Shown piece after piece: positions 48,056 to 63,677 of a stretch of 64,000 bases of DNA. A model generated the notes under the pieces. That model did not search any database and was not told where the DNA came from. It saw nothing but the letters and a program-made list of their open reading frames with translations. Each line of letters begins with the position of its first letter. Within the stretch, counting starts at the first letter, position 1. The stretch lies in the NCBI GenBank assembly GCA_944386415.1, contig CALXAY010000007.1:167-64166 (forward strand), written 5' to 3'. Position numbers and translations under genes: made by a program. Origin of the DNA: an uncultured Clostridia bacterium (GTDB taxonomy: Bacteria > Bacillota > Clostridia > TANB77 > CAG-508).

Positions 48056-49678
48056 TCATATAATTTTATTAAATAGCACATCTGCTTTCCTTTTGACAAA
48101 TTCATTCAAAACAACAAATGAAATTATAAATATTACCATTTCTACTAATAATGCTAATGTAACATTCGTATCTTTAAATATTTTTGATAAATACATATAT
48201 ATAAGTATCATTATAATAGTTAAAGCATATTGAAATGATTTATTATCATTTCTTTTTACTACAGAATGTTCAGAATTCCAATTCAAATATGGTTTTCTTA
48301 AATCAACAATAATCATTAAATAACTATTTATTAAATTTATGAATATTGATATTATAAATATTAGCCCTATATTTATTAATCCTATTTTTGGAATATATAT
48401 ATTTATAATTCCTAATAATATTATAGATACAATAGTATTTAACAAAATTTGCAGTATATTTTTATATAAAAATTGCCTATAATAGCTAATTGGTATATAT
48501 TTCATGAATATTGCGTTTTTTCCCTCTCTAGATATTGCAGTAAGCGATAAACTTGATAGAGAAAATATTACTTGTAAAAAACCTAATATAATACATATCA
48601 TTTCACTATTAAATTCCATCGAATATAGACTTTGTTTTATCGTCTCATCACTATTCTGAATTGCTGAATCTATAACTGGTATCATTACATTTGCTAGCAT
48701 TACTACAGTTATTAGAATCATAATTACAGGAAATATTGTTTGCATAAAAAATATAGGATTTTTAAATAACATTTTAAATTCCTTTTTTATATATGCTTTT
48801 TTTATACTAATTTTTCTATTTTTTATTTCAATTGGTCTTTTTTCTGCAAATTTTAAATTTCTTTTTGACGTATTTAATGTTTTTAATAGTATCCTTAGAT
48901 ATATTTTTTTTCCTATCAATATAAATAATCCCAATAAAAATACATCTAAAATAAATAAAATTATTAAGTATTTACATTTTTCTATTATATTTGTCCCTGT
49001 TAATATTTTTACTATAGCAAAAATGAAAAAATTCTGCTCTTGTAAATTACTAATATCTCCTAATAAAATATTTTCTGCCACTAATAATAAACCTATTAAT
49101 AAAATACTAGTTAAATTTTGTAAAAAAGTCCTGTTTTTTATAAATGATAATATTTTAATAAATATTAATGCGAATATCCCTATTGTTGCAATAAATAATA
49201 TTGGTAATAAAATTAGTACTAATAAAATAAATATAAAATATCCAAAATTAGTATAATTTAGAAATCCGTATAATATAAGCGGTACCAATCCAAATATTAT
49301 TTCAGTGATATATGCCATTATTAATACTGTATTAAATTTTGAAATTAAAATTTCTTTTGTTTTTACTGGTAATGGTAATATTAATTCTAAATCCTTTGAA
49401 AAAAAGAAGATGTTTATTATTACTATGGTTATTTGAAACATTAATAATATTGCTAAAAATATCATATAAAAGTTTATAAATATTTCTGGCTTTCCCAATG
49501 ATTTGCAAAACTTTATTGCTTCATAACTCACATATACTATTGTAATGGAAACAATTACTAACATCCAAAAATATATTGATTTGATATTTAACTTTTTTGT
49601 TTCTTTACTTACTAAATTTGTACTTTGATAAAAATCTTTTACAAATATTTTTGTCAAAGCTTTTATTTTACTAAACAT
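48056..49678 (-). CDS. ABC-2-like multi-TM permease
   Basis: Many TM segments; DLELILPLPV, KKEFKMLFKNP, AISREG and DLRKPYLNW motifs. Confidence 0.75.
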   Translation of the reverse strand: MFSKIKALTKIFVKDFYQSTNLVSKETKKLNIKSIYFWMLVIVSITIVYVSYEAIKFCKSLGKPEIFINFYMIFLAILLMFQITIVIINIFFFSKDLELILPLPVKTKEILISKFNTVLIMAYITEIIFGLVPLILYGFLNYTNFGYFIFILLVLILLPILFIATIGIFALIFIKILSFIKNRTFLQNLTSILLIGLLLVAENILLGDISNLQEQNFFIFAIVKILTGTNIIEKCKYLIILFILDVFLLGLFILIGKKIYLRILLKTLNTSKRNLKFAEKRPIEIKNRKISIKKAYIKKEFKMLFKNPIFFMQTIFPVIMILITVVMLANVMIPVIDSAIQNSDETIKQSLYSMEFNSEMICIILGFLQVIFSLSSLSLTAISREGKNAIFMKYIPISYYRQFLYKNILQILLNTIVSIILLGIINIYIPKIGLINIGLIFIISIFINLINSYLMIIVDLRKPYLNWNSEHSVVKRNDNKSFQYALTIIMILIYMYLSKIFKDTNVTLALLVEMVIFIISFVVLNEFVKRKADVLFNKII

Positions 49679-49692
49679 CTTCTTCTCCTATT

Positions 49693-50850
49693 TTATTCCA
49701 AACTAAATGACATTACGAAATCTGTTCCTTCTCTTAATTGCATAATAATTGTTAAATTCTTTGATTCAGCTGCACTTCCTACACCACTTTTTATCTTTGT
49801 TGTATATATATATGTGCTACCTTCATTATCAATATCTATATTTCCTGTAGTATTTAAATTGTAATCAAAAAAATTTTCATTAACATATTCTTTAAATTTA
49901 TCTAAAGTATCAAAATTATTATTTCTAAAAGTTCCATCTAATAATTCATATGCATGAGAATAATCTTTTGTGTTTATCATTTGTAAGAATATATATACAT
50001 TTGCTTGTATCTTTTGACTTGTATCTAATTTACTATAATCCTCTTCATATGTATCTACTTTAATTGTATAATTATCTAACAATATTGTATAATCCCATAT
50101 TCCATTAGTTCTAATAGTATATGAATTATTATAATTATCAACTAATATATATTCTGTATAATTTTCTTTAATTTCTACGTCATATTTTAATAATGATGAA
50201 TATTGTATTCTATTTCTCAAACTGTTTACATATTCTTGAAAATCTGTATATGTAGGAAATCTTTCTTTTCTATATTCTTCATCAAGCAACTCATATGCTT
50301 CTTCTGGGTTATTCAATTCTTTTTGTTTAAAATCTTCTAAATATCTTCTACACATATTTTCATCACTAACAGCTTCGTATTTAAAAGAATTATTTTCATT
50401 ACTTGTTATATTTGCTTCATTATCCTCTAGTTTTATCTCGTCTAAACTATTATACTTTCCATCTTCTATCTCTTCTATTTTAAATGCCATATTTCGCATA
50501 TCTACTCTTACTATAAAATACTTTGTAGTATTATTTAGTATTCCTTCTACTGAATAAGTCATGACATTATTTCCTTGTAAATAATTCATTCTTTTGGCTA
50601 CAAAATTTTCGTCTATATTATTTTTTATACACTCCTCTACTGAAAAAAATTCAGTTGGTTCTCTTAATTCTTTTTGACTATATTCTAAATCCATTTCTGG
50701 TTCTGGAACAGTTTCTACTGTTCCAGAACTTTTTTCAATTAATGTTCCTGCCTCTTTTTTTGTGTTTACTAACATTATTGATATAATTATTATTACTATT
50801 ATTACCAAAATAATAGATATAGCAATTATTATTTTTTTGTTTCTACTCAT
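49693..50850 (-). CDS. Membrane-anchored protein with two NTF2-like repeats (VirB8/TcpC-like)
   Basis: N-terminal TM; internal repeat AYELLDxxxR..F.T..xFxEYV; lies in the T4SS operon. Confidence 0.55.
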   Translation of the reverse strand: MSRNKKIIIAISIILVIIVIIIISIMLVNTKKEAGTLIEKSSGTVETVPEPEMDLEYSQKELREPTEFFSVEECIKNNIDENFVAKRMNYLQGNNVMTYSVEGILNNTTKYFIVRVDMRNMAFKIEEIEDGKYNSLDEIKLEDNEANITSNENNSFKYEAVSDENMCRRYLEDFKQKELNNPEEAYELLDEEYRKERFPTYTDFQEYVNSLRNRIQYSSLLKYDVEIKENYTEYILVDNYNNSYTIRTNGIWDYTILLDNYTIKVDTYEEDYSKLDTSQKIQANVYIFLQMINTKDYSHAYELLDGTFRNNNFDTLDKFKEYVNENFFDYNLNTTGNIDIDNEGSTYIYTTKIKSGVGSAAESKNLTIIMQLREGTDFVMSFSLE

Positions 50851-50862
50851 AGGCTCCTCCTT

Positions 50863-62861: not shown

Positions 62862-62865
62862 CTCT

Positions 62866-63297
62866 TTATATGTTAGATAAAATATTTACTGCTATTTTCC
62901 AAATTATAAAAGTTGCGAACACTACTAAACAACTTATAGCATATCCTAATAAAACTTGTTTTAAATCAGCTTTTACCTCTAAGCTACCTACCATATATTT
63001 AATACCTAATACAATTCCAACTGCTACTGCTGTAATTATTCCTACTCCTAAAAGCAAATTATATAGAAAATTAGAAGTTTCTCCTAATGCATCTGTATTT
63101 ATATTGTTTGCTTTAATCTCGTTTTCTCCTTTTTTAATAAAATTATCAGCTTCTCCAAAAATATCATCAACAGTAATATCTGAGGCTACTTTTACTTCTT
63201 CTATATGCATACAATAGGCACTATTCTGATATATAAATAAAAAAGTTATAAACATTAAAATAATTGATATTATTTTTAACTTTTTCATTTTTATCAC
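62866..63297 (-). CDS. TrbC/VirB2-like pilin paralog 2
   Basis: GIKYMVGSLEVKADLKQVLLGYAIS. Confidence 0.75.
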   Translation of the reverse strand: MIKMKKLKIISIILMFITFLFIYQNSAYCMHIEEVKVASDITVDDIFGEADNFIKKGENEIKANNINTDALGETSNFLYNLLLGVGIITAVAVGIVLGIKYMVGSLEVKADLKQVLLGYAISCLVVFATFIIWKIAVNILSNI

Positions 63298-63308
63298 CCC
63301 TTAATCCT

Positions 63309-63677
63309 CTATTTAATTAATGATGTTCCTACATCAATTATTATTGCAAGAATGTTAGTTATACCAAATACCAACACAGCACCTATTAAATATGGTCTCA
63401 TTGTTTCTTTATATGTAGCTTTTTCTTCTACACTACCCATCATATATTTTATACCTAGTATTGCTAATACTGCAACTGATATTATTGTTCCTACTGTTCT
63501 TAAAATTCCTATAATTATATTTCCAAAATCCAATAATCTATCTGCTCCAGTTACCTCTGTTGTACTATTAGGCTCCCAATTACTTGGATTAAAATCTATA
63601 GCTGCATAATTAACATTAGCAATCATAAATATTAATATTATAAAAATTAATATTATTCCTAAAATCTTATTTTTCAT
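63309..63677 (-). CDS. TrbC/VirB2-like pilin paralog 1
   Basis: GIKYMMGSVEEKATYKETMRPYLIGA. Confidence 0.8.
   Translation of the reverse strand: MKNKILGIILIFIILIFMIANVNYAAIDFNPSNWEPNSTTEVTGADRLLDFGNIIIGILRTVGTIISVAVLAILGIKYMMGSVEEKATYKETMRPYLIGAVLVFGITNILAIIIDVGTSLIK

Follow-up and report, generated by a model that had tools for sequence, protein, structure and literature searches.

A Chromosomal, Vertically Inherited Type IV Secretion-Like Gene Cluster With a Pilin Array in Clostridia of the Order TANB77

Results

The stretch of DNA analyzed here, referred to as the window, comprises 64,000 nucleotides of contig CALXAY010000007.1 (C7) of an uncultured Clostridia bacterium of the order TANB77 (GenBank assembly GCA_944386415.1, our reference genome G000), namely C7:167–64166; positions given below are those of the window unless another contig is named. 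Contig C7 is 64,435 nt long and ends approximately 435 nt past the window, and the assembly amounts to 1.70 Mb in 76 contigs, is 87% complete and has a GC content of around 27%. Twelve open reading frames (ORFs), all intact, co-oriented on the minus strand and tightly packed, occupy positions 48056–63677 and encode a type IV secretion system (T4SS)-like machine that is chromosomal and vertically inherited. Their boundaries agree exactly with the coordinates of an earlier annotation made from the sequence alone (the first-pass annotation), and the run of four pilins, PrgI, VirB4, a VirB6-like protein and a hydrolase described there was borne out by family matches and paralogy, its VirB8-like labels being weaker. 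The base composition was likewise found to be host-like, as had been stated, with a GC content of 20–35% in 2-kb windows of the cluster as compared to 22–30% in the rest of the window.

The first genes of the cluster encode four VirB2/TrbC-like pilins, all on the minus strand: paralog 1 (122 aa, 63309–63677), paralog 2 (143 aa, 62866–63297), paralog 3 (118 aa, 62505–62861) and paralog 4 (121 aa, 62045–62410). Paralog 4 (TrbC PF04956, 49.3 bits; T4SS_pilin, 43.6 bits) and paralog 3 (37.8 and 31.2 bits, respectively) score above the cut-offs of both families, and the latter also matches NF045849 at E 1.1e-8. The matches of paralog 1 (TrbC, E 2.6e-5, 24.8 bits; T4SS_pilin, E 2.2e-4) and of paralog 2, the most divergent one (TrbC, E 0.0093, 16.6 bits), are sub-threshold. 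All four are mutual paralogs with 33–66% identity and E-values of 1e-8 to 1e-21 in tblastn (35–43% identity for paralog 2 against the others), and they have in common a signal-like segment and two hydrophobic helices. Located 1.8–3.4 kb from virB4, the pilins were matched in 72–74 of the 80 best-matching loci, in which a component was counted as present when matched at ≥50% query cover and many of which are truncated by the end of a contig or of the flank considered.

The best sigma-70-like promoter match of the region (63707–63735, minus strand; TTGAAA-17-TATAAT, 11/12, a consensus match only) lies about 30 nt before the first pilin gene, and a terminator-like hairpin with a 15-pair stem and a T run (61987–62022, minus strand) stands at the boundary between the pilin array and the machinery genes. 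Terminator-like sites in the region number 7 as compared to 3.2 expected; because promoter-like sites were not enriched over shuffles (118 versus 109), an operon structure can only be suggested. The array is flanked by a tRNA-Ser(GCT) gene (63864–63953, minus strand; ARAGORN) and by a second one, tRNA-Ser(TGA), just past the window edge; both tRNA-Ser genes abut the first pilin gene and their 3′ ends point toward the cluster. As a separate observation, two loci of family f3 (L131 and L137) carry a TraX-family gene, an N-extended SSB-like gene and a small M23 peptidase gene beside the pilin array, upstream of it; the F-pilin acetylase is a member of the TraX family.

Downstream of the array lie the genes of a PrgI/VirB3-like protein (122 aa, 61494–61862, minus strand; PF12666, E 1.8e-5, marginal at 25.6 bits as compared to a cut-off of 27), of p402, a TrsD/TraD-like protein anchored by a transmembrane (TM) segment (402 aa, 60293–61501, minus strand), and of the VirB4 ATPase (650 aa, 58338–60290, minus strand). 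The succession PrgI-p402-VirB4 was present in 80 of 80 close loci, p402 and VirB4 being matched in 80 each; PrgI was found in these and in all 10 loci of the other-family synteny set, and p402 adjoins VirB4 in 90 of 90. VirB4 matches NF045971, the CD1110 family, at E 2.7e-62 over model positions 177–729, the first ~176 positions being absent, and was additionally matched by NF045975 (E 3.4e-56), TIGR00929 (E 4.1e-26) and P-loop_TraG (E 1.1e-15), as well as weakly by CedB (E 3.3e-4) and CedD (E 7.9e-6). Since its score of 211 bits lies below the CD1110 cut-off of 325, it is regarded as a superfamily member and not as a CD1110 equivalog.

We read p402 and the 650-aa ATPase as a split VirB4, in which p402 would represent the detached N-terminal domain, with a coiled-coil hairpin inserted into it and a charged helix at its C-terminus. 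This reading is based on an alignment with the TrsD family, a fold match to TrwK, the start of VirB4 at model position 177 and a complex prediction. A p402 profile built from 45 sequences aligned to a 178-aa ORF of the TrsD/TraD family on contig C74 (hhalign probability 95%, E 4e-8), and the same ORF matches positions 121–287 of the long Mycoplasma VirB4 model. The AlphaFold model of p402 (pLDDT 68.5) was aligned by VIA-align to residues 15–206 of R388 TrwK/VirB4 with a Z of 10.8 (rmsd 4.0, 168 aligned residues), the remaining high-scoring VIA-align rows covering the coiled-coil hairpin only; Foldseek returned no match at E ≤ 0.001, its top match being TrwK at E 0.053. The predicted p402-VirB4 complex reached an ipSAE of 0.76 as compared to 0.00 for the best control, with at least 96% of contacts agreeing between runs and a partner pLDDT of at least 82; in calibration, 116 of 157 solved complexes and 2 of 215 mismatched pairs attained this ipSAE mark. 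In the predicted interface, VirB4 strand 83–89 pairs with p402 strand 131–137.

The next gene encodes an extended VirB6-like polytopic protein (921 aa, 55571–58336, minus strand) that contains six or more hydrophobic segments, carries a pilin hairpin of its own and has a hydrophilic tail of ~500 aa; it was matched in 48 of the 80 loci. Its assignment is based only on weak homology (NF045848, E 4.5e-9, below cut-off), topology and position. Residues 236–295 match T4SS_pilin at E 0.0018, and residues 256–293 share 37% identity with residues 69–105 of a pilin (BLASTP, E 2e-5). The bitopic protein p323 (323 aa, 54597–55568, minus strand; 65/80 loci) had been labelled VirB8-like, and its model (pLDDT 90.5) does display the VirB8 architecture of a TM helix, an NTF2-like domain (residues 84–198) and a beta-sandwich (residues 201–323), with structure matches to the NTF2 superfamily at Z 7.6–8.9 and of the sandwich to 3fbq at Z 10.5; yet no VirB8, PrgL, TcpC or TraM chain occurred among its top 50 structure matches, which does not exclude that family. 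The same label had been given to p385 (385 aa, 49693–50850, minus strand; 57/80 loci), which is indeed bitopic but offers a weak NTF2-like lead (ESM Atlas 0.85, MecA_N/DUF4829) and has no Pfam, NCBIfam or PDB sequence match. Profile searches against PDB sequences with p402, p323, p385 and the Replic_Relax-like protein described below yielded nothing below E 0.07.

Between p323 and p385 lies the gene of a TM-anchored multi-domain peptidoglycan hydrolase of 1235 aa (50863–54570, minus strand), a VirB1/PrgK/TraG analogue with an NlpC/P60 match in two stretches (E 1.3e-13) and weak glucosaminidase, CHAP and Amidase_5 matches; it was matched in 8 of the 80 loci. The last gene, beginning 14 nt after that of p385, encodes a PF16949 polytopic membrane protein (48056–49678, minus strand; E 3.4e-6), the ‘permease’ of the first-pass annotation. 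It was matched in 12 of 80 loci and directly follows VirB6 in L044 and L078, but its membership in the machine is uncertain because a 30%-identical paralog is encoded on contig C9.

The cluster is not an integrative and conjugative element (ICE), because its orthologs are near-universal, its gene order is kept, its flanks are housekeeping genes and neither an integrase nor an attachment (att) repeat was found. Relatives were surveyed in 41 genomes of the same genus and of four other families (labelled f1–f5 together), and VirB4 orthologs were detected in 40 of them, the single miss being G021, which is 82% complete. VirB4 identity amounted to 75–94% within the genus and to 64–74% (full-length matches) in the four other families, as compared to 80–93% and 63–71%, respectively, for release factor 1 (RF1) of the same genomes, and the identities of the two proteins correlate with a Spearman coefficient of 0.83 across 31 genomes, which, being related, are not independent data points. 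In a maximum-likelihood VirB4 tree of 20 rows, with the f1 label assumed for nine public loci, f1, f2, f3 and f5 each form a clade with 100% support. Moreover, an even class-wide draw of 300 genomes (match threshold E ≤ 1e-90) gave a VirB4 match in 10 of 10 same-order genomes at 68–83% identity and in 3 of the 290 others at 32–39%. At least 530 stretches from GTDB species representatives encode a VirB4 relative, and the hosts among the VirB4 matches listed are uncultured gut Clostridia, Clostridium sp. CAG:343 and Clostridium sp. CAG:575.

The order pilins-PrgI-p402-VirB4-VirB6-p323-hydrolase-p385 recurs in the 80 best loci, and its core from the pilins to VirB6 was present in 10 of 10 loci from other families. 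A tRNA-Ser(GCT) gene stands ahead of the pilins in 43 of the 80 loci, 40 of which also have tRNA-Ser(TGA), and past the tRNA genes the upstream flank of relatives reads DUF4446-parB-parA-rsmG-mnmG. Of 57 loci with upstream sequence of 5 kb or more, 36 have ParA/ParB genes, which were found in none of 9 other-family loci; loci devoid of ParB have rpsB, tsf, nrdD and M16 peptidase genes among the housekeeping genes upstream, along with an IS110 transposase gene in one case. Downstream, DnaJ and CoA-activase genes recur wherever the flank extends so far. Genome-wide, ten PF00589 integrase matches were obtained, none of them on C7 (serine recombinases were not searched for), and no relaxase match was obtained on C7 with PF03432, PF02486, PF01076 or PF03389. 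No direct-repeat family includes the tRNA-Ser gene at 63864–63953, and integration at tRNA-Ser was rejected in view of the missing repeat and of a flank that represents a conserved housekeeping context. The domesticated, chromosomal character proposed in the first-pass annotation is thus upheld by the orthologs found throughout the order, by their conserved synteny and housekeeping flanks and by the agreement of the VirB4 tree with the families: where an integrase or relaxase just beyond the window had been considered, relatives have parAB and tRNA-Ser past the pilins instead, and the distribution is near-universal rather than patchy and ICE-like. Outside the order, two of the distant VirB4 loci (L141 in G266 and L143 in G082; 32–39% identity) display the same local layout of small ORFs, an ORF of ~220–340 aa, VirB4, a large membrane protein and a hydrolase; one adjoins a dnaN-like gene, one lies near genes of an S1-domain protein and a TraG-D_C protein, and no relaxase family was detected in the 20 kb around them.

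The extracellular parts of the machine diverge much faster than the ATPase: where VirB4 is 94–96% identical, identity is 49–76% for the pilins, 53–56% for p323, 59–60% for the hydrolase and 55–58% for p385. This fits cell-surface exposure. Short RNA-library contigs from two studies match cluster genes with 0–1 differences; some RNA runs had no cover over parts of the cluster, which is not evidence of silence.

Approximately 35 kb from the cluster, within the window and amid housekeeping genes, a VirD4-type coupling protein (T4CP) is encoded at 11964–13992 (minus strand) in two frames, a 163-aa TM part and a 519-aa ATPase part, that meet at Walker A. It matches PF02534 at E 9.7e-81 and NF045973, the CD1115 family, with 433 bits as compared to a cut-off of 250. 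Orthologs were found in 39 of 41 relatives, 78–87% identical within the genus and 46–63% elsewhere, the misses being G008 (74% complete) and G036 (99% complete). The frameshift is common to 10 of 17 loci examined (L107–L116), the 7 other orthologs being intact (L121–L127). At its site (13480–13540) one extra C lies within the Walker A codons, so that the 0-frame reads GGN-CGG and meets a stop 4 codons on; skipping the extra C yields the same P-loop as in the 7 intact orthologs, and the downstream frame has no start codon ahead of the P-loop. Both halves of the frameshifted protein stay conserved at 63–87% identity. CGG accounts for 57 of 302,854 codons in G000, and no tRNA-Arg(CCG) was found among the 28 tRNAs of this incomplete assembly. 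Judged from these sequence features, the T4CP gene is a candidate for a programmed +1 frameshift.

A 170-aa protein encoded beside the T4CP (14279–14791, minus strand) had a tblastn match next to T4CP in 17 of 17 loci at 36–86% identity; family-profile searches assigned it to no family and ESM Atlas gave nothing. On its other side, the T4CP gene adjoins a 148-aa Fic-domain ORF (11340–11786, plus strand) with a weak match to the VbhT adenylyltransferase family (E 7e-6), which is not kept beside T4CP in relatives; a Fic-HTH protein is encoded near the cluster in one f2 locus (L133). Elsewhere, a protein of 780 aa encoded on contig C24 (1026–3368; L120) resembles TraG-D_C and, weakly, VirD4 (CD1115); reading frames of similar length (~780 aa) are found repeatedly within the genus. 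Several paralogous genes of AAA_14 + DUF4143 ATPases are dispersed through the genome (window 224–1345 and 2242–3543; C50:7587–8810).

A protein with a match to Replic_Relax (PF13814) is single-copy in 40 of 41 relatives, the miss being G035 (93% complete), with identities of 72–88% in the genus, 54–58% in f5, 50–52% in f4, 49–50% in f2 and 47% in f3. Its gene in G000 (C50:3–932) adjoins that of an S1-domain protein and lies 4.4 kb from that of an N-extended SSB-like protein; its distance from VirB4 is ~10 kb in 4 of 4 f3 genomes and 5 kb in one f2 genome, with the S1 gene always alongside. An alignment of the Replic_Relax-like protein displays invariant acidic residues. PF13814 belongs to the MobC relaxase superfamily, which in Firmicutes is paired with FATA T4SSs and VirD4 coupling proteins according to the available text of PMC5357655. 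We therefore regard the conserved Replic_Relax-like protein as a candidate MOBC relaxase. The absence of mobility genes noted in the first pass thus holds for the cluster itself, which has no integrase, relaxase or att site, but not for the genome, and a reading of the system as devoid of coupling protein and relaxase fails at that level, given the CD1115-family T4CP in the window and the conserved PF13814 candidate.

Other genes of this kind were less regular. MOBP relaxases are patchy (14 of 41 relatives), and Rep_trans and MobA_MobL were not found in G000 (87% complete). The MOBP relaxase on C2 and the Mob_Pre protein on C39 were rejected as parts of the machine, as they look like separate mobilizable elements. 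The region C2:24000–45500 (L117 and L118) is a probable integrative mobilizable element: besides a tyrosine integrase and a MOBP relaxase, it encodes a phage replisome organiser (phage_rep_org) and a DnaC-like protein and contains a large helicase/methylase island of restriction type. Since it encodes no T4SS itself, this element is a possible client of the resident machine. Contig C74 (L119; 8700–17400 and 22275–22811; GC 20.8%) carries, between gyrB and gyrA, a second VirB4-like gene, whose 622-aa product shares 27% identity with the first VirB4 and matches the CD1110 family with 285 bits, together with two TrsD-like ORF copies and the gene of a 392-aa AAA-like protein. This second VirB4-like gene has orthologs in 31 of 41 relatives, several of them interrupted by stops, and the C74 genes look like a second, patchier T4SS-like module.

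Discussion

The likeness to the multi-pilin T4SS of Patescibacteria (candidate phyla radiation, CPR) that had been proposed at first pass stands with respect to the pilin array, the chromosomal site and the near-origin position. As far as the accessible text on Southlakia epibionticum ML1 and TM7x goes (PMC12102498), both systems reside in monoderm hosts, combine a FATA-type VirB4 with tandem divergent VirB2-like pilins, are chromosomal, vertically inherited and origin-proximal (here, mnmG-rsmG-parA-parB/tRNA-Ser lie ahead of the pilins in relatives) and often have the T4CP away from virB4. They differ in that the host here belongs to a spore-forming Clostridia order and in that VirB4 is split into a TrsD-like and an ATPase protein. 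Furthermore, a large VirB1-type hydrolase is present here whereas most pilin-bearing CPR genomes are described as being without VirB1, and the MOBC-like candidate is universal here as compared to relaxases in 103 of 3,035 CPR genomes (PMC12102498, available part).

The best family matches for VirB4 (CD1110) and T4CP (CD1115) come from the CTn2-type ICE of Clostridioides difficile, and with the MPF-FATA systems (pCF10 Prg, pIP501/pGO1 Tra/Trs) the cluster has in common a hydrolase of the NlpC/P60-CHAP type, a TrsD/TraD-like protein encoded separately ahead of VirB4 and, by weaker assignments, PrgI/VirB3, a VirB6-like protein and a bitopic protein with an NTF2 fold. In contrast to these elements, no integrase, ICE borders or cargo are found here, the genes are spread out along the chromosome and include a pilin array, and VirB4 stays below the CD1110 cut-off. 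Likeness extends to genes of Mycoplasma ICEs (Mbov_0395 pilin-like, MMCAP2_0566 and Mbov_0397 VirB4): the pilins match NF045849 at E 1e-6 to 1e-8, the VirB6-like protein matches NF045848 and VirB4 matches NF045975, all with scores below curated cut-offs. The Mycoplasma genes, however, are located on ICEs with a DDE recombinase, and VirB4 is fused there (a model of 894 positions) and split here. The archaeal Ced/Ted systems, in what is accessible of PMC9905601, are likewise domesticated chromosomal conjugation machines with a VirB2-like pilin and a VirB6-like protein that have a hairpin module in common; those systems import DNA, and the relationship is one of analogy only.

Taken together, we lean towards regarding the cluster as a vertically inherited chromosomal descendant of a Gram-positive (MPF-FATA, CTn2-like) conjugation system that became fixed order-wide and that probably, if by no wide margin of confidence, transfers DNA to neighbouring cells. 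DNA transfer is favoured because the conserved set, made up of the pilins, VirB3, VirB4, VirB6, a VirB8-like protein, the hydrolase, VirD4 and a MOBC-like protein with OB-fold partners, includes every component expected of a Gram-positive conjugation system and pilins in addition. The T4CP and the relaxase candidate make a role in DNA transfer more likely than one confined to attachment or the delivery of effectors. Following this, we propose that the pilin array would be transcribed from its own promoter and that the four VirB2-type pilins would enter the membrane, from which PrgI/VirB3, the two-piece VirB4 and the extended VirB6 platform with its pilin-like hairpin may extract and polymerise them, while the NTF2-fold bitopic protein or proteins would span the wall zone and the 1235-aa hydrolase would open the peptidoglycan. 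The substrate would be fed by unlinked, equally conserved genes, namely those of the VirD4-type coupling ATPase and most likely also of the MOBC-type (Replic_Relax) nuclease with its S1/OB-fold and SSB-like partners. Because such suppliers point to DNA, the putative cargo would consist of pieces of the chromosome or of mobilizable elements residing in the genome, for instance the ones on C2 and C39.

Several observations weigh against this reading. Neither the T4CP nor the relaxase candidate is linked to the cluster in this genome, and they may instead serve the C74 VirB4 module or another process; G036, although 99% complete, has VirB4 without a T4CP match, and in G000 and 9 other species the T4CP is whole only via a +1 frameshift inside the P-loop. 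The PF13814 match is marginal, with 26.2 bits in G000 and 26–37 bits in orthologs as compared to a cut-off of 25.3, just model positions 1–111 being matched in G000, and no solved structure matched the protein; no origin of transfer (oriT) was identified, oriT not having been tested for. Within the genus, VirB4 and RF1 are weakly congruent, with a non-significant Spearman coefficient of 0.36 (n = 19), the pass of the p402-VirB4 complex prediction may stem from likeness to solved VirB4 structures, and the RNA-library contigs cannot exclude DNA carry-over. Moreover, the Patescibacteria precedent is thought to be non-conjugative in its role, to judge from the accessible parts of PMC12102498 and PMC12857230.

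One alternative would be a contact or exchange machine like the one proposed for Saccharibacteria, whose pilus and T4SS would serve to attach to other cells and to transfer proteins, signals or nutrients required by an organism with a reduced genome, DNA not being the substrate. The VirB2 array, the chromosomal near-origin site, the FATA-type VirB4 and the fast-diverging pilins are as in Patescibacteria (PMC12102498, as far as available), the genomes of the lineage are small (0.8–2.4 Mb), and the RF1-like conservation of VirB4 would fit a lifestyle-central function. The T4CP is compatible with either kind of cargo, since protein-translocating T4SSs also need one. We nevertheless consider such a role rather unlikely, given that the MOBC-like nuclease, the S1/OB-fold and the SSB-like proteins are conserved and, in f3 and f2, cluster-linked, that no effector candidates were identified and that the host, unlike obligate epibionts, possesses sporulation genes and the full set of wall-synthesis genes. 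SSB-like neighbours would also suit incoming single-stranded DNA, and a conjugation apparatus domesticated and reversed so as to serve natural transformation or repair, in the manner of Helicobacter ComB or archaeal Ced/Ted, would account for a chromosomal module of pilin, VirB6-like protein and VirB4 and for a VirB6 pilin-like hairpin of the sort reported for CedA/TedA in the available portion of PMC9905601. The CedB and CedD matches of VirB4 are generic P-loop matches far under the cut-offs, though, and the system is accompanied by a conserved VirD4-type T4CP and a conserved relaxase-like protein. To our knowledge, the Ced/Ted systems lack VirD4 and relaxase, and ComB and Ced function without T4CP or relaxase, so that import strikes us as improbable. 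An old ICE at tRNA-Ser that lost its integrase and is decaying without function for the host would explain why two tRNA-Ser genes are oriented with their 3′ ends toward the cluster, why the nearest families are ICE-borne (CTn2 CD1110 and CD1115) and why the T4CP is frameshifted in many species. Yet all 12 ORFs are intact, intact orthologs with RF1-like conservation exist across five families, no att repeat is present, outside the family the cluster persists but the tRNA flank does not, and both halves of the frameshifted T4CP remain conserved, which makes decay very hard to sustain.

Returning to DNA transfer as the preferred function, a bolder form of it would be an order-wide core ‘sex’ apparatus, i.e., a complete but dispersed conjugation system (pilus, split VirB4, VirD4 and MOBC-like nuclease), conserved at the level of RF1, for routine chromosome-to-chromosome exchange that is throttled by a programmed +1 frameshift at the rare codon CGG in the T4CP P-loop, with Patescibacteria as one case of a wider monoderm phenomenon; we put this forward tentatively, as a conceivable but doubtful extension. 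According to the accessible text of a 2025 review (PMC12857230), VirB2 is not found in Gram-positive T4SSs apart from Patescibacteria, whose T4SS is called unique among monoderms for its pilin array and host-level role. Our literature search found no paper describing such a system in Clostridia and none on type IV secretion in TANB77, most subscription journals and, for the former, supplements lying outside the search. An inherited chromosomal pilin-bearing T4SS has thus been in print so far for Patescibacteria only, and the Clostridia case appears to be undescribed. The lineage would constitute a second, independent and very large case, with at least 530 species-level genomes having a VirB4 relative and with ordinary Bacillota of human and animal guts as hosts. 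With a retained coupling protein and a relaxase candidate, the question whether domesticated machines still move DNA becomes testable by population genomics and metatranscriptomics, and the putative split VirB4 and the VirB6 with a built-in pilin module offer natural examples of such arrangements. Clinical associations have been reported for TANB77, in which a different pilus (Tad) is described as conserved in the part of PMC11680825 that is available; two adjacent CpaF/T2SSE-type ATPase genes at C20:14175–16175 (L138 and L139) possibly belong to this TANB77 Tad pilus locus.

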